Part shown: positions 1 through 6,971 of the stretch, piece by piece
Layout of the letters: the number at the start of each line of letters is the position of its first letter
How positions within the stretch are numbered: the stretch's first letter is position 1
Source: Escherichia phage WG01
Sequence record: NC_031928.1
Length of the DNA: 64,000 nucleotides
Direction: 5' to 3' (one strand)
Notes under the pieces: model-generated
Told to the model about the DNA's origin: nothing
What the model saw: the letters and a program-made list of their open reading frames with translations, nothing else
Database searches by the model: none
Translations under genes and position numbers: made by a program

Positions 1-924
1 CCAGAATTGGCTGATGCTCTTCAAGAAGGTTTAGTGTCATTAACATGTCGTCTGGTTCCTGATGCTGCCCATACCACTAAATTTGAAGCGAGTGATGTAG
101 AAATCTCTGATGCTGTATTCCAGGTTAATAAATGGAATGCTCCGGTTAAGACCCGTAAATTGAAGACGGCTTTGACTGTAGAATTAGCGCAGGATATGGA
201 ATCAAATGGCTTTGACGCGCCGGCGTTCTTAGAAGACCTCTTGGCTACAGTAATGGCAGATGAAATTAATAAAGACGTTCTGCAATCTCTAATAACCGTA
301 TCCAAACGTTATAAAGTTACTGGTGTATCTGATAACGGCATCATCGATTTGTCTTATGACAGTGCTCCTGAATCTGCACGTAAACTTTATGAACTCGTTT
401 GTGAGATGAATTCTGAAATCCAGAAAACTACTTCTTATTCTGGCACGTTTGTTGTGGCTTCAAGTCGTGTGGCTGCAATGCTTGCAGGTTCTGGCTGGTT
501 AAAACATAAACCCGAAGATAATAATTGGCTTCCGGAAACTGCATACGGATATTTGTTGAATGGTCTGCCTCTGTTTTGTGACGTTAACAGTCCATTAGAT
601 TATGTTACCGTTGGTGTTAAAGAGAATTACGGCGGTAATGAAGTTGTCGGTTCTATTTTCTACGCTCCCTATACCGAAGGCTTAGATTTAGATGACCAAG
701 AACACGTCGGTGCTTATAAGGTTATTGTTGACCCGGATTCATTACAACCTTCTATTTCTCTGATGGTTCGTTATGCACTATCAGCTAACCCGTACACCGT
801 GGCTAAAGACGATAAAGAAGCTCGTGTTATCGATGCAACCAATATGGATTTAATGGCTGGACAGAGCAATATGTCTTATCTGGTTGGCGTTAAACTTCCG
901 GCAATTATTTACGAGGCTGATTAA
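1..924 (+). CDS. gp23/gp24-family capsid protein, 5' end cut by window edge; the visible 305 aa are gp24 (vertex)-like
   Basis: Open frame from nt 1 with no start in window; about 55-60% identical by eye to the downstream 426-aa paralog; shared motifs VELAQD, NKDVLQSLITVS, YAPYTEGL, ANPYTVAKDDKEAR. Confidence 0.85.
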   Translation, partial: PELADALQEGLVSLTCRLVPDAAHTTKFEASDVEISDAVFQVNKWNAPVKTRKLKTALTVELAQDMESNGFDAPAFLEDLLATVMADEINKDVLQSLITVSKRYKVTGVSDNGIIDLSYDSAPESARKLYELVCEMNSEIQKTTSYSGTFVVASSRVAAMLAGSGWLKHKPEDNNWLPETAYGYLLNGLPLFCDVNSPLDYVTVGVKENYGGNEVVGSIFYAPYTEGLDLDDQEHVGAYKVIVDPDSLQPSISLMVRYALSANPYTVAKDDKEARVIDATNMDLMAGQSNMSYLVGVKLPAIIYEAD

Positions 925-2204
925 TGTCTAAGATTGTAGACCTAATTAAAGAATCCACATTGACGGCTGCCAGCTCGGTTGGCCGTCCTGCTCTTCTTTC
1001 ATACACCCAAGCAACTAATAAACGAATCTTTAAAGCCCTAGTTGCTGAACAAAAAACAAATCAACCGGTTGCTGCTCTGTATGGGGTACGTGTACTGAAT
1101 CCTGACGACAAAATGACTTATCTTGGTGGAGCAACATTTGCGGGCCAGATTGGTATGACGGAACGTGAAAATATTCCAGAATTTACTGATTCATCTACAG
1201 CTTATGCGGTCGGTGATATGTTCCAGTTTGAAAGCGTAGTGTTTAAAGTTCTAGAAGCATCTCCTTTCGCCGGAACCACAGAAACCAACCTCAGCGAAGT
1301 TATTTCTGAAGCAGTGGCAGCCGGCCATATCCGTATGGTGTCGGATGCTGCTATTACTTCTAAATTTGAACAAGGCCATCCTGAAATTGCTGAAACCGGA
1401 TTCCGTATCGACAAATGGCAATCTGAAGTTAAATCACGTAAACTGAAAACTTCATTGACAGTCGAATTAGCCCAAGACCTAGAATCTAACGGGTTTAATG
1501 CTCCTAATTTCGTTGAAAATCTGCTAGGCATTCAAATGGCAGAAGAAATTAATAAGGATGTATTACAGTCATTAATTACCGTGAGCTCTCGTTTTAAAGT
1601 CCAGGGTGTTTCTGAAAAGGGTGTATTAGACCTTACCAACCCTCGCTACGATAATGCCCAGGACCGTGCTCGCACATTATATTATTATATGTGTGAGATG
1701 AACTCTGCCGTCCAACGACAGACTTCTTTTGCCGGGACTTATGCAGTAGCTAGTTCTCGTTGTGCTGCTATTCTCGCCGCCTCTGGTTGGGTTGAGAAAA
1801 AGGAAGACCAGGACGAATTGGCTTATGGTATATTAAAGAATGGCCTACCACTTTATGCCGATATGAATAGTCCATGTGATTATGTTATTGTTGGTGTAAA
1901 TGCCCAGATGGGTGAAGGACAGACGGTCGCATCTTTATATTATGCGCCTTATACGGAAGGTTTGAATGTGGTTGACGAAGAAGGTGATACTTCAGTTGGT
2001 GAATTTAAGGTTATTGTTGACCCGGAAAGCTTACAACCTACAGTAGCATTGCTTGCCCGTTATGCATTGACTGCAAACCCTTATACCGTCGCTAAGGACG
2101 ATAAAGAAGCCCGCATTATTGATGGTTCTGATATGGACAAAATGGCTAATCAAAGTCAATTGAGTTCTTATCTCGGCGTAAAATTACCGCCTTTAGAAAA
2201 ATAA
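924..2204 (+). CDS. 24: gp24-like capsid vertex protein, 426 aa
   Basis: ATG overlaps upstream stop (TAATG); length matches T4 gp24 (~427 aa); lies immediately upstream of rnlB as in T4. Confidence 0.85.
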   Translation: MSKIVDLIKESTLTAASSVGRPALLSYTQATNKRIFKALVAEQKTNQPVAALYGVRVLNPDDKMTYLGGATFAGQIGMTERENIPEFTDSSTAYAVGDMFQFESVVFKVLEASPFAGTTETNLSEVISEAVAAGHIRMVSDAAITSKFEQGHPEIAETGFRIDKWQSEVKSRKLKTSLTVELAQDLESNGFNAPNFVENLLGIQMAEEINKDVLQSLITVSSRFKVQGVSEKGVLDLTNPRYDNAQDRARTLYYYMCEMNSAVQRQTSFAGTYAVASSRCAAILAASGWVEKKEDQDELAYGILKNGLPLYADMNSPCDYVIVGVNAQMGEGQTVASLYYAPYTEGLNVVDEEGDTSVGEFKVIVDPESLQPTVALLARYALTANPYTVAKDDKEARIIDGSDMDKMANQSQLSSYLGVKLPPLEK

Positions 2205-2226
2205 AAGGGACCTTACGGTCCCTTTA
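2205..2226. terminator. Bidirectional hairpin terminator between convergent gp24-like gene and rnlB
   Basis: AAAGGGACC-TTAC-GGTCCCTTT hairpin flanked by A/T runs on both sides. Confidence 0.6.
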
Positions 2227-2230
2227 TCGT

Positions 2231-3238
2231 TTATTTGGATACTAGTTCAATCCATACATGTCTTAATGTTTCTTTTACACACTCAACGAGCTGCTTTTTA
2301 ACTTCAACGGGATTTTCCGCATCAGTTAATTCCAATTCTTCACGGGCGGCTTCTTCAAGGATATCCTGGACTGTCAAGCCCATCACCTTTCCGAAATCCT
2401 TCGGCGATACTTCGCCAATCTTACTGATGACATTGTTAATGCGGTTAACAGTCACATAATCGGTGAATTGCCACATCAAATCCATATCGTCTTGGGACAA
2501 TACCACTGCAACTTTAATAGGCTTATCAGACTTTTTCTTCTCGCTGAATTTAGAGTTCTTACATTTAATCGCCACACGATTTCCGTTTGGAAGCCAGGTA
2601 GGAACATCAGGTTTCAATACAAAGCCTTCAGCCGTGAATACCTTACCTTCTACCTTAGGAATAAAATCGGTTGAGTTTGCAATAGTTAAGCCTGCGTTAT
2701 CCACTGCAAAATTATAATCAGGAACAACTGAATCAAAATCATTAGGAAGTTTAATAAGGTCTTCAAAGCTACCAGTGGCCAGACATGGAGCTACCTTAAA
2801 CTTATGGATAATACAGAAGGCTTCCATCAATGTATCGGTTAGAACAGATTCTGAGCCATCTTCTTTAGTAACTCGGATATCGAACACATAAAAGTCTTTA
2901 TCGCCGTAGTCCACATTCTTCTGGATACCTGTCCCAGCGAATTCGCCATAAATCTGGTATGACTGATAATTAATCGATTCAATTAGATGTTGAACTGATT
3001 TAATAGAATCAGCGTAGTTCTTAAGTACAATTTCATAACCATAGAAATCTTCAGCAGGGAGGATAGGGCCAGTGCGCTTGGCGCATGTGACTGCGTCACG
3101 TTCTATGATTAAACTAAAGTTGGTTCCATGAATCTTCTCACGTGCTACCCATTCACCACCAGTCAAACCGTTAGTACGGAGTTTTTCGATAAACTTACTG
3201 TTGTAGTGGTTTTCGAGACTGCTATATTTCTTGAACAT
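2231..3238 (-). CDS. rnlB: RNA ligase 2 (Rnl2)
   Basis: 335 aa; N-terminus [20 protein letters not shown] and KIHGTNF adenylation motif closely match remembered T4 Rnl2. Confidence 0.93.
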
Positions 3239-3352
3239 AAATCACCATAATAAATATAATTAAATAGAAGAGCTAGTAGTCTTCTGTCACCAAGCCAAAT
3301 GGTTTAACGGAAGGACCTAGACCCATTATATCACACCTAAATTTAAAGCATA

Positions 3353-3562
3353 TTACTTTGAACTAGAACGCGCTTTGCGCCGAACCTTGTTGTTCAATCT
3401 TTTACGATAAACAACCTTTTCTTTCGCTTTAAATTTGGCCTTGGCTTGTTCTACATCAACCCATGCTTTGGCCATGTCCTTAGCGGTCCCGCCCATTTTT
3501 TTAGCAATTTCTATAAAATTCAACCCAGATTCGTGTAAAAAATGTACTTTAACCTTATCCAT
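3353..3562 (-). CDS. Small basic protein with helix-turn-helix-like segment (69 aa from ATG)
   Basis: Track ORF 3353..3601 starts at GTG; first ATG at 3562 gives MDKVKVHFL...; segment SGLNFIEIAKKMGGTAKDMAKAW and very basic C-terminus; early-type promoter upstream. Confidence 0.5.
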   Translation of the reverse strand: MDKVKVHFLHESGLNFIEIAKKMGGTAKDMAKAWVDVEQAKAKFKAKEKVVYRKRLNNKVRRKARSSSK

Positions 3563-3591
3563 AACAATTCTCTCGTTGAGTTGGTAAACCC

Positions 3592-3621
3592 ATCTTAACA
3601 CAGAATTTTTAACTTGTAAAC
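3592..3621 (-). promoter_or_regulatory. T4-type early promoter candidate
   Basis: Minus strand GTTTAC, 17-nt spacer, TTAAGAT, about 30 nt upstream of ATG at 3562. Confidence 0.4.
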
Positions 3622-3644
3622 AGGAATTTTGTACTTTAATGCAA

Positions 3645-3664
3645 AATGGGCCTTGCGGCCCATT
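3645..3664 (-). terminator. Hairpin terminator downstream of hoc
   Basis: AATGGGCC-GCAA-GGCCCATT followed by U-rich tract on minus strand. Confidence 0.5.
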
Positions 3665-3665
3665 A

Positions 3666-4514
3666 TTAATAAATGTAATCGTATATAATACCAGCTTCTA
3701 AAGCGGTGCGATGAATAATTCGACCATTACGAGATTCTTGTACATCAACCTCTGAATAGTCGGTAATCATTTTTTGAAGTGTATATCGGTGCAAATAATA
3801 CGGGCTATCCGGGTCATCTGTTTTCCAGTCTTTGCCTTCAAGAGTCATTTTCTGGATTTCATCCATAACCCACCAACCAACCCAAATATATGCTGAATTA
3901 CGAACAGGGAGTGGATGAACGTAAGGTAATTCGCCATCCGGAACCGGTGCGACTTTAGCCGTGACTGTTACATTACCGGTTTTTGTGACAGTCGCCGGGT
4001 TATAATCAGTCGCCGAAACCACAACAGAAACTTCAATAACCTGTGAACCTTCAGTGCTTGTATCGATTGCTAGAGTATCCGTGGTGCCAACTACAGGAGA
4101 ACCGTCTTTCTTCCAAGAATAGGCAAAAGTAGCACCAGCAGGAGCGCCGACCACATCCGCTTTAAAAGAAGCTGGAGTGCCTTCCGGAACATTAATCGAA
4201 GCTGGGGTTAATGTCACAGAAACACCGGAAATGGTTTTATTCTGGATAGTTAAAGTTGTTTCGGCTTCAGCTGTTTCTGGTTCGCCGTCAGCCGGTGTAG
4301 TTGTTGCAACAACTTTAATAGTCTTGCTGCCTGCCGGGCCAACAGCAACATAATCCATTGCAGCAGTCACAGAAGATTGAGGAACGCCATCAACGGTCCA
4401 GACAAATGATTCGGTACCTTCAGCTGCAGCACCGGAACCGGTCGCAGTGAAATTGGTTGTTGCTCCAATAACGGCCGTAGCCGCCAAAGGAGCCATATCT
4501 ACGGTATAAGCCAT
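3666..4514 (-). CDS. hoc: Hoc-like outer capsid decoration protein with Ig-like repeats
   Basis: 282 aa; Thr/Val/Ala-rich beta-rich repeats and W-rich C-terminal segment (YIWVGWWVMDEIQKM); position between rnlB and inh as in T4. Confidence 0.7.
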   Translation of the reverse strand: MAYTVDMAPLAATAVIGATTNFTATGSGAAAEGTESFVWTVDGVPQSSVTAAMDYVAVGPAGSKTIKVVATTTPADGEPETAEAETTLTIQNKTISGVSVTLTPASINVPEGTPASFKADVVGAPAGATFAYSWKKDGSPVVGTTDTLAIDTSTEGSQVIEVSVVVSATDYNPATVTKTGNVTVTAKVAPVPDGELPYVHPLPVRNSAYIWVGWWVMDEIQKMTLEGKDWKTDDPDSPYYLHRYTLQKMITDYSEVDVQESRNGRIIHRTALEAGIIYDYIY

Positions 4515-4523
4515 AATAAACCC

Positions 4524-5195
4524 TTATTTTAAAGTGACAAAAGATGAGTTACGAGTTTCACGTACTAATACTGAACCATTACGATTAATGTAATAAATCA
4601 GACTAAATAATGTTTGGTGGGCAGAAGGATGTTGGAAAGCAGTTGGACGTTCTTTCCAATCCGGAGTCTCAGAAATCCATTGGTAAATCCACCAAGGAAC
4701 GGTGCAATAACCTGGGTTCTTACCGATAAGCAAAAGATTAGGACTGAAGTTTTCAGGTAAAGAGAATACAGGTTTTTCAGATTCAACAACCTTGGCTATA
4801 GCCCCTTTGAATTTCTCTTCGTCAAATGGAACATCCTCTTCGATAATCTCTACCTTAGGAAGTTCGGCTACCTCAACGACTTCTACTGCAGCCTCAGGGG
4901 CATCGAACAACAGGGTGGCTTCTTCTTTAGCTGGTTCAGCACCATCAACAAATTCGTTAGCACCTGTAAGTTCGTCGGCAGCATCAATCAAATCAGAAAT
5001 GGACAACCCTTCGGTTTCTGGGAGTGGTTCGTCAGCCAAGGCTTTAAGGCCTTCAGAGATATCGATAATCAAATTATCAAACGAACGGGTTTTCTTAAGT
5101 TTTAAACCGAACTGTTCGCCGTATTCGATTAACTTAGCTTTAGCTTCTTTTTTATCTTCGAGTGCACGAAGCTCTTCAATATATTGAGTATCCAT
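4524..5195 (-). CDS. inh: Inh-like head protein (inhibitor of prohead protease)
   Basis: 223 aa, acidic; position between hoc and uvsW; size matches T4 Inh (~226 aa). Confidence 0.6.
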   Translation of the reverse strand: MDTQYIEELRALEDKKEAKAKLIEYGEQFGLKLKKTRSFDNLIIDISEGLKALADEPLPETEGLSISDLIDAADELTGANEFVDGAEPAKEEATLLFDAPEAAVEVVEVAELPKVEIIEEDVPFDEEKFKGAIAKVVESEKPVFSLPENFSPNLLLIGKNPGYCTVPWWIYQWISETPDWKERPTAFQHPSAHQTLFSLIYYINRNGSVLVRETRNSSFVTLK

Positions 5196-5214
5196 AATTA
5201 GTCTCTTGTTGGTG

Positions 5215-5222
5215 TATAAATA
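5215..5222 (+). promoter_or_regulatory. T4 late promoter TATAAATA for uvsW
   Basis: Exact TATAAATA 29 nt upstream of uvsW ATG. Confidence 0.6.
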
Positions 5223-5228
5223 TAACTA

Positions 5229-5236
5229 TATTTATA
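5229..5236 (-). promoter_or_regulatory. T4 late promoter TATAAATA (minus strand) for inh-hoc
   Basis: Plus-strand tatttata is TATAAATA on minus strand, about 34 nt upstream of inh ATG; divergent with the uvsW late promoter. Confidence 0.55.
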
Positions 5237-5250
5237 ACTGAGAATTACTT

Positions 5251-6747
5251 ATGCAAATTCAAGTACATTTTGATAATTTTAGTCATGTCCGTATTGAATG
5301 CGATGAATCTACATTCTACGAACTCAGAGACTATTTTAGCTTTGAAGCTGATGGATATAAATTCAACCCTAAATTTCGTTATGGTCAATGGGACGGACGT
5401 ATTCGCCTTCTGGATTACAACCGTAAACTTCCTTATGGATTGGTCCCTCAAATTAAAAAGTTCGCTGAACAATTTGAATACTCTCTGTGGATTGACCCAC
5501 GTATTCTTGAACAGGAAGATATTTCTCGTGAAGATTTTGATTCATGGGTGGCTTCTCAAGAAATTTATTCAGGGTCTACCAAGATTGAGCCTCATTGGTA
5601 TCAGAATGAAGCCGTATACAACGGCCTGACAAAACGTCGCGCAATTCTGAATTTACCTACATCTGCAGGTAAATCATTAATCCAGGCACTCCTGAGTCGA
5701 TATTACGTTGAGAACTATGAAGGTAAAATCCTCATCTTAGTTCCTACTACTGCACTTGTCGACCAGATGATTAACGACTTCATCGATTATCGTCTGTTCC
5801 CTAAAGCCGCAATGCTTGGTATTCGTTCAGGTACTGCTCGTGATTCCGATGCAATGATTTATGTTTCAACTTATCAAACCGCTATCAAGCAACCTAAAGA
5901 ATGGTTTGCTCAGTTCGGTATGTTTATGAACGACGAATGCCATTTGGCTACAGGTAAATCTATTTCTACTATCATCGAAGGCCTAACCAACTGTATGTTT
6001 AAATTCGGTTTGTCGGGTTCTTTAAAAGATGGTAAAGCTAATTTAATGCAATATATGGGTTTGTTTGGTGATGTGTTTAAGCCAGTATCCACCTCCCAGT
6101 TAATGGAAGAAGGACAGGTTACTGACCTTAAAATCAACAGTATTTTCCTTCGATACCCAGACGAATTCACGGTTAAAATGAAAGGTAAAGATTACCAATC
6201 AGAAATCAAGGTCATTACTAAGGCTACTCGTCGTAATAAATGGGTTGCTAATTTAGCTGTTAAACTCGCTAAGAAAGAAGAGAACGTATTCCTGATGTTT
6301 AAAAACATCGAACACGGTAAAACTCTTTTTGAAATGGTTAAAGAGCAACATAAAGAAGTTTATTACGTATCAGGTGAAGTTAATACCGAAACGCGTAATG
6401 CTCTGAAAGTAATGGCGGAAAATGGTAAGGGTATTATTGTTGTGGCAAGTTATGGTGTGTTCTCTACTGGTATTTCCGTTAAGAACCTTCACCACGTTGT
6501 ATTTGCCCATCCAGTAAAATCTAAAATCATTGTACTCCAGACAATTGGTCGTGTACTCCGTAAACATGCCTCTAAATCAACAGCACAGGTGTGGGATATC
6601 ATCGACGACATGGGTGTTAAGCCTAAATCAGCTACGGCTAAAAAGAAATATGTTCATTTGAACTACGCCCTCAAACACGCTTTAGAACGTATTCAACGTT
6701 ATGCTGATGAGAAATTTAATTACGTAATGAAACAGGTGGATTTATGA
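5251..6747 (+). CDS. uvsW: UvsW SF2 DNA/RNA helicase
   Basis: 498 aa; N-terminus MQIQVHFDNFSHVRIECDESTFYELRDYFSFEADGYKFNP closely matches remembered T4 UvsW; Walker A PTSAGKS and DECH box. Confidence 0.95.
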   Translation: MQIQVHFDNFSHVRIECDESTFYELRDYFSFEADGYKFNPKFRYGQWDGRIRLLDYNRKLPYGLVPQIKKFAEQFEYSLWIDPRILEQEDISREDFDSWVASQEIYSGSTKIEPHWYQNEAVYNGLTKRRAILNLPTSAGKSLIQALLSRYYVENYEGKILILVPTTALVDQMINDFIDYRLFPKAAMLGIRSGTARDSDAMIYVSTYQTAIKQPKEWFAQFGMFMNDECHLATGKSISTIIEGLTNCMFKFGLSGSLKDGKANLMQYMGLFGDVFKPVSTSQLMEEGQVTDLKINSIFLRYPDEFTVKMKGKDYQSEIKVITKATRRNKWVANLAVKLAKKEENVFLMFKNIEHGKTLFEMVKEQHKEVYYVSGEVNTETRNALKVMAENGKGIIVVASYGVFSTGISVKNLHHVVFAHPVKSKIIVLQTIGRVLRKHASKSTAQVWDIIDDMGVKPKSATAKKKYVHLNYALKHALERIQRYADEKFNYVMKQVDL

Positions 6748-6971
6748 AAACCTTTAAAGAAGTTATTCAAGAAGCATCTATTGAAAGCTTCATGGCTAAA
6801 ATTGGTTCTTGTCAGACTATGGACGGTCTGAAGGAACTAGAGAAGTATTACAAAACTCGTAGTAAGGAAGCTGAACTTCGTGATTCGGACGATATTAGCG
6901 TGCGTGATGCATTGGCTGGTAAGAGAGCTGAATTGGAGTCGATGGACGACGAGGAAGAGGAAGATTTCTAA
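6744..6971 (+). CDS. uvsW.1: UvsW.1 small acidic helicase accessory protein
   Basis: 75 aa, overlaps uvsW stop; acidic C-terminus DDEEEEDF. Confidence 0.8.
   Translation: MKTFKEVIQEASIESFMAKIGSCQTMDGLKELEKYYKTRSKEAELRDSDDISVRDALAGKRAELESMDDEEEEDF

Follow-up and report, generated by a model that had tools for sequence, protein, structure and literature searches.

Anciently diverged tandem gp24-type capsid vertex protein genes in a Dhakavirus-like phage and their relatives

The window analysed here, 64,000 nucleotides of Escherichia phage WG01 (NC_031928.1), opens inside the first of two tandem genes, 24a and 24b, whose products are both paralogs of the T4 capsid vertex protein gp24. The pair is old; it occurs across several genera and metagenomic lineages and several lineages of the Tevenvirinae have preserved it intact. 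Strong purifying selection acts on each copy, with dN/dS values of 0.04–0.07, similar to or below that of gp23, and both keep the motif predicted for cleavage by the prohead protease. From these features, we put at roughly 0.55 the probability that each of the two proteins, after processing, takes its place in the prohead shell at the pentameric vertices, in separate or mixed pentamers.

The tandem pair itself is already annotated and published, and its existence is not new. The names 24a and 24b are used in the GenBank entries for JS10 and IME08, the JS98 record carries the name 24a on the matched gene, and in most of the remaining records two genes are given as "head/capsid vertex protein". 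The Melville genome paper noted a capsid vertex "tandem gene duplication" in S16 and Melville, and noted the duplication only (PMC6486254). Apart from that remark, a search of the full-text literature returned no virion proteomics, genetics or structure of any two-copy phage. What is added here is the age and spread of the pair, the purifying selection, the late operon, the kept cleavage motif, and a fixed signature of 24b at residues 25–59.

Results

Locus and gene layout

The locus is that of a Bp7/FB-like Dhakavirus, with 24a and 24b between gene 23 and rnlB. A megablast search with positions 1–3300 of the window gave nucleotide identities of 99.8% to vB_EcoM_FB (FB), 99.7% to Bp7, 99.5–99.6% to E33, LQ5, and PSD2002, and 92% to JS10; all of these relatives are Dhakavirus or close kin. 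The following genes define the region:

Positions 1–924, plus strand: 3' part of 24a, comprising the last 307 codons and the TAA stop at 922–924, with frame 1 open from base 1.
Positions 924–2204, plus strand: 24b, a complete ORF encoding a divergent 426-aa gp24 paralog, assigned by homology to T4 gp24.
Positions 2231–3238, minus strand: rnlB (RNA ligase 2), an ORF annotated at the same position in Bp7, JS10, and others, which anchors the synteny on the downstream side, as it does in T4.

The first 363 nt of 24a and its late promoter fall beyond the window edge; a TTG at position 7, considered as the start of the upstream ORF, was discarded as an artefact of that edge. The full-length gene, together with its TATAAATA promoter, is found in L001 at 4604–5923. 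FB and JS10 share the order 20, 67, 68, 21, 22, 23 (519 aa), a short reverse-oriented ORF, the vertex genes, and rnlB on the opposite strand. The vertex pair of these two phages consists of a 427-aa protein followed by one of 426/427 aa, and 24a has 427 aa in FB, Bp7, and JS10. The initial annotation was also correct in stating that gene 24 of T4 is single and lies between 23/segD and rnlB.

Both genes encode gp24 paralogs

The initial annotation, made from the letters of the window, put forward a tandem pair of gp24 paralogs and did not decide whether the truncated upstream gene was a second gp24 or gp23. Both proteins turned out to be nearer to T4 gp24 than to gp23. The upstream fragment and 24b match the Pfam family PF07068 (Gp23/Gp24, HK97-fold capsid family) with E values of 1.7e-79 and 2.5e-96, respectively, and a gp23-rooted tree places the two within the gp24 clade. 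The identity between the copies, estimated by eye at about 55–60% over some 290 aa, was reproduced by BLASTP (177/306, 58%, with 77% positives and E 1e-127), and each of the gp24-type motifs pointed out earlier (NKDVLQSLITVS, YAPYTEGL, and ANPYTVAKDDKEAR) is found in both translations. At full length, 24a shares 70% and 24b 55.7% identity with T4 gp24, and the two copies share 54.7% with each other; the identity of either to gp23 is just 26–29%.

For the upstream gene, the gp23 reading had two points in its favor, namely that the 5' end is hidden by the window edge and that PF07068 is common to gp23 and gp24. The fragment, however, is 72% identical to T4 gp24 as against 29%, over 250 aa, to T4 gp23, in line with the earlier impression that it does not resemble the gp23 C-terminus. 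It also matches residues 122–427 of FB_0178, the 427-aa vertex protein of vB_EcoM_FB, with 100% identity over 306 aa, and thus the C-terminal part of a protein of gp24 length. Extension through relatives that are 99.5–99.8% identical yielded a complete 427-aa gp24-type protein starting with MAKINELLRE↓S, where the arrow marks the cleavage position. A separate gp23 lies upstream in the relatives (517–519 aa in FB, JS10, SEA1, P896, and L016; 524 aa in L018), and the 519-aa gp23 is located about 400 bp further upstream. The upstream gene is thus not a gp23 of about 520 aa with a delta domain. The complete identity to the FB vertex protein and the far greater similarity to gp24 than to gp23 therefore make it a second gp24; we consider the chance that it is gp23 negligible, and the assignment to the gp23 C-terminus was ruled out by the gp24/gp23 identities together with the separate gp23 of the relatives.

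The divergent copy, 24b, aligns to T4 gp24 across all regions at full gp24 length, with no domain gained or lost. A length of about 427 aa, a short predicted propeptide of 10 residues, and the lack of a delta domain of about 65 residues hold for 24b (426 aa) and for the 24a of the relatives. Among PDB sequences, the best match of 24b is T4 gp24 (1yue, E 1.4e-150), with gp23 at about 1e-11. An AlphaFold2 model of 24b was of too low confidence (pLDDT 60, pTM 0.62) for mapping its class-specific residues, and the best Foldseek matches of this low-confidence model were T4 gp24 chains (E 1.5e-38, TM about 0.46). Because of the 56% full-length identity to 1YUE, 24b very likely adopts the HK97 fold with an insertion domain as seen in that structure.

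Distribution and history of the pair

A tblastn search with 24a at E <= 1e-100 returned 1231 places in 1115 phage records, and therefore about 116 records have two copies. With 24b as the query, tblastn found 86 phage records at an identity of at least 80%. The pair is present in Dhakavirus, in Gaprivervirus (P896), in Gelderlandvirus (SEA1), in Erwinia phage FBB1, and on several metagenomic contigs; an Enterobacter phage with two matching places apparently has it too. In FBB1 and on the metagenomic contigs, a 24b-type copy 66–76% identical to that of the window lies directly behind a 24a-type gene. T4, Mosigvirus, Karamvirus, Jiaodavirus, and phage 04086 have a single copy.

A neighbor-joining tree of gp24 sequences was built with 200 bootstraps and rooted with gp23. 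The 24b sequences formed a monophyletic clade with 100% bootstrap support, in which the copy of the window groups with those of JS10, P896, and SEA1. The stem of this clade is long (0.18 substitutions per site), and 24b is the most divergent Tevenvirinae gp24. The clade splits off close to the root of the Tevenvirinae gp24s rather than as the sister of 24a. The 24a-type genes are interleaved with single-copy gp24s such as those of T4, Karamvirus, and Kanagawavirus. A simple in-situ duplication in the Dhakavirus ancestor is unsupported, since the tree does not join 24b to 24a as sisters and places single-copy lineages within the 24a-type genes. The candidate of an independent duplication (P0070 and P0090), which lie on contigs of equal length, was dropped as a coincidence; P0070 is single-copy.

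The branching within 24a largely agrees with that within 24b. The exceptions are L018 and L019, in which the 24b of one subclade is paired with the 24a of another, and the two genes are therefore exchangeable independently. An old duplication with several losses and some exchange, a post-duplication acceleration of 24b, and the acquisition of a foreign copy all fit the neighbor-joining tree, which does not separate these three histories.

Selection on both copies

Nei–Gojobori dN/dS values were calculated for ortholog pairs of FB with JS10 and of FB with P896, in that order below:

24a: 0.044 and 0.070.
24b: 0.055 and 0.052.
gp23: 0.129 and 0.049.

Branch lengths inside the 24a and 24b crown groups are also alike. 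Together with the similar dN/dS values, this indicates that 24b, after an early burst, has been as constrained as 24a. Synonymous sites between the two copies are saturated (pS 0.65–0.75). The two copies have no nucleotide tract of more than 63 nt in common, the one of that length being 73% identical, and the paralog identity is steady at 55–57% across four lineages. Ongoing gene conversion or concerted evolution was rejected on these two grounds.

The same data bear on the reading of 24b as a recent, redundant or decaying duplicate without a selected function. Nothing except its status as a duplicate speaks for this. The saturation between the copies, the 24b ortholog dN/dS of about 0.05, and the ORF that is intact in all lineages examined, some of them 66–70% identical to the window's copy, all stand against it. 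We judge it very improbable, and decay was rejected on the basis of dN/dS and of intact orthologs down to 66% identity.

Expression signals

Two features of the window concern the expression of the pair:

Positions 913–926, plus strand: the 24a/24b junction, with a Shine–Dalgarno-like GAGG at 913–916 and the sequence TAATG, in which the stop occupies 922–924 and the start 924–926.
Positions 2204–2225, no strand assigned: a G+C-rich hairpin with a 9-bp stem between the convergent 24b and rnlB, matching a terminator-like consensus on both strands.

At the junction, the 24a stop and the 24b ATG share one base, and GAGG lies 7 nt upstream. The stop of 24a and the start of 24b abut or overlap in 10 out of 10 loci, ranging from an overlap of a few bases to a 1-nt gap, and this arrangement is kept across lineages in which synonymous sites are saturated. 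The T4 late-promoter consensus TATAAATA was found 25–30 nt upstream of 24a in FB, JS10, SEA1, P896, L016, L018, and L019, that is, in each lineage for which that upstream sequence was at hand; it likewise precedes the single gene 24 of T4 and TU02. A scan of six 24a sequences showed no TATAAATA inside the gene, and 24b, which directly follows 24a, has no late promoter of its own. The sole promoter upstream of 24a and the abutting stop and start lead us to infer that 24a and 24b constitute one late bicistronic operon with translational coupling. The hairpin is a predicted bidirectional terminator that likely closes this operon.

Cleavage motif and class-specific residues

Within 24b, two N-terminal elements could be located:

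Positions 942–956, plus strand: codons 7–11, L-I-K-E↓S, a putative gp21 prohead-protease site, identified by alignment with LLRE↓S of T4 gp24.
Positions 996–1094, plus strand: the N-terminal signature of 24b, residues 25–57, reading LLSYTQATNKRIF...GVRVLNP instead of LVALTRATTKLIY...GIKYLNP.

In T4, the 10 N-terminal residues of gp24 are removed by gp21 inside the prohead (PMC9546572). The corresponding L/I-x-E↓S motif is found at residues 8–11, as LIKE↓S in 24b and as LLRE↓S in the 24a of the relatives, and none of 47 gp24-type sequences departs from E10 and S11.

At ten positions, every 24b departs from a residue that all other gp24s share, and eight of these ten lie within the signature region. 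We compared identities by region, using approximate domain boundaries taken from PMC9546572. The values below are given in the order: within 24a plus single-copy gp24s, within 24b, and between the two classes.

Residues 25–59: 0.82, 0.85, 0.53.
Insertion domain, 82–142: 0.46, 0.59, 0.38.
Spine-helix region, 177–226: 0.83, 0.84, 0.73.
Loop, 348–359: 0.78, 0.57, 0.37.
C-terminal P/A region, 360–405: 0.79, 0.83, 0.75.
C-terminal tail, 406–427: 0.73, 0.90, 0.56.

The class-specific conserved differences concentrate at residues 25–59. The insertion domain is variable in all classes.

Discussion

Proposed role and alternatives

In the role that we favor, 24a and 24b would be co-transcribed late and translationally coupled, so that the two proteins would be made together and in similar amounts. 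Both would enter the prohead, where the gp21 protease would remove the first 10 residues of each, and both would then serve as pentameric vertex subunits in the same virions. Each may build homopentamers of its own at separate vertices, or the two may mix within a pentamer. The residues that set 24b apart (25–59, the C-terminal tail, and the A-domain loops) might alter its contacts with neighboring subunits or with the scaffold. A stricter version, which we put forward only tentatively and with some doubt, holds that both proteins are obligatory and stoichiometric in one capsid and form two kinds of five-fold vertex. In the prolate head, for example, the apical vertex might differ from the ten at the shoulders, or there might be defined heteropentamers, and the 25–59 signature of 24b would then encode distinct contacts. 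We know of no tailed phage with two specialized penton proteins.

The main rival to the joint presence of both proteins at the vertices treats them as alternatives: either one alone would build all 11 vertices, and having two versions would give robustness, for instance against a vertex-sensing host defense or across hosts or temperatures. We regard both the interchangeable use and this benefit as rather unlikely. One gp24 suffices for the capsid type in the single-copy relatives, and the mixed-subclade pairs of L018 and L019 show that the genes are exchangeable independently. Triggering of type IV Thoeris needs the vertex protein, and T6 escapes through the gp24 substitution A380V (PMC13243611). 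The residue equivalent to A380 of T6 is, however, unchanged in 24a and 24b, and 24b was rejected as a built-in escape variant at this site for that reason. Obligatory co-expression from a single promoter, with the stop and start abutting, is easier to reconcile with a fixed partnership than with a switch. Purely redundant copies are usually lost, but here both are kept, at a dN/dS of about 0.05, in all two-copy lineages examined.

It is also conceivable that 24b has left the vertex and acts as a minor shell or core component, as an assembly factor, or as a regulator of gp21 activation. The long stem branch of 0.18 leading to the most divergent gp24 of the Tevenvirinae would suit such a departure, as would the fixed changes that 24b carries in an N-terminal segment that never varies among the other gp24s. 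The protein nevertheless has full gp24 length and can be aligned to T4 gp24 in every region, its spine-helix and C-terminal P/A regions are 73–75% identical to those of ordinary gp24s, the cleavage motif is kept, and no domain was gained or lost. We find a non-vertex role quite improbable, and vertex placement of both proteins remains our preferred reading.

About one-tenth of the sequenced T4-like phages that encode gp24 keep an anciently diverged second vertex protein, while T4 needs one. If both proteins are in the head, these phages would offer a natural system for pentamer identity and placement in a large prolate capsid, and the second copy would become relevant to the engineering of T4-type capsids and to display. 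Should they instead be alternatives, the pair would bear on how phages evade vertex-sensing defense systems.

Comparison with known systems

In the Dhakavirus phages JS98, JS10, IME08, and Bp7, 24a and 24b occupy the same locus; structurally nothing is different, and the window represents another isolate. Their records annotate the pair without functional information. Gelderlandvirus S16 and Melville show the same tandem vertex-gene duplication in a different genus and host, and the copies of the Gelderlandvirus SEA1 are 87% (24a) and 83% (24b) identical to those of the window.

The older duplication that gave gp23 and gp24 is a precedent for the duplication of a capsid protein followed by specialization, in that case for the hexamer versus the pentamer (PMC10580926; PMC9546572). 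gp23 and gp24 share about 21–29% identity and have clearly separate roles, whereas 24a and 24b share 55–58%. The gp24-bypass mutations in gp23 are a related known system to be named beside this duplication.

T4 gp24 (PDB 1YUE; capsids 5VF3 and 7VRT/7VS5) belongs to the same family, PF07068, has the same length of 426–427 aa, and is encoded at the same position between gene 23 and rnlB. It has the same late-promoter consensus upstream, as seen for 24a in the relatives, and the same motif, with the cut after residue 10. Proteins of the T4 gp24 family form pentamers at 11 of the 12 vertices of the virion. The 55 gp24* subunits of T4 all have a similar conformation (PMC9546572), and a prolate head of the T4 type therefore needs no second kind of vertex protein. 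Likewise, many close relatives have a single copy, which shows that a capsid of this type can generally do without 24b. The difference is that T4 has one gp24 copy, whereas the phages described here have two, with 24b carrying fixed substitutions at residues 25–59 that are absent from all single-copy gp24s.

Mosaic and Single-Copy Arrangements of the Vertex Genes

The pairing of 24a (the upstream gp24-type capsid vertex gene) with 24b (its complete paralog) was inspected in two metagenomic contigs.

L018 2224–4778, mismatched 24a–24b pair
L019 58–2603, mismatched 24a–24b pair

In both contigs, the subclade of 24b in the gp24 tree differed from that of the adjacent 24a-type gene, which was T4/Karamvirus-like in L018 and PEi20/PM2-like in L019. 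Therefore, the histories of these adjacent genes are partly independent, and the pairings point to mosaic exchange within the head-gene cluster.

A single-copy arrangement was found in Escherichia phage 04086.

OR842557.1 105861–107717, single gp24, directly followed by rnlB

This gp24 showed just 68% identity to 24a. The record carries the genus label Dhakavirus, yet the phage has one gp24; either the label is loose or this is a lineage without 24b.

Flanking and Downstream Regions

Window 2204–2225, perfect 9-bp-stem hairpin (arms AAAGGGACC/GGTCCCTTT) between convergent 24b and rnlB
Window 3250–4514 and L002 8243–12340, variable stretch between rnlB and inh
L001 (phage vB_EcoM_FB) 4272–4538, reverse strand, outside the window, small ORF between 23 and 24a
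Window 5251–6747, uvsW, 498-aa ORF
Window about 6744–6971, small ORF after uvsW, overlapping it

The hairpin starts at the final base of the 24b stop codon (2202–2204) and gave a terminator-type score on both strands, matching the consensus of a putative terminator. Beyond rnlB, the content of the interval up to inh differs among close relatives: the window holds one short hoc (282 aa, 3666–4514), JS10 and IME08 carry additional ORFs, among them a second hoc-like gene and one for a "tail fiber-like protein", and in some relatives approximately 370 bp are inserted adjoining rnlB. ARAGORN found no tRNA genes in the whole window (1–64000).

The site between 23 and 24a, occupied in T4 by segD (a homing endonuclease gene), holds a small reverse-strand ORF of 88–93 aa in the relatives from Dhakavirus and Gaprivervirus; SEA1 and TU02 have no annotated feature between 23 and the gene 24-type gene. 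The FB counterpart of the small ORF after uvsW (L001 11743–11970) is also annotated as "DNA helicase". In contrast to the 498-aa uvsW and small overlapping ORF of the window, the T4 RefSeq record gives a single longer uvsW CDS, with a note on sequence discrepancies.
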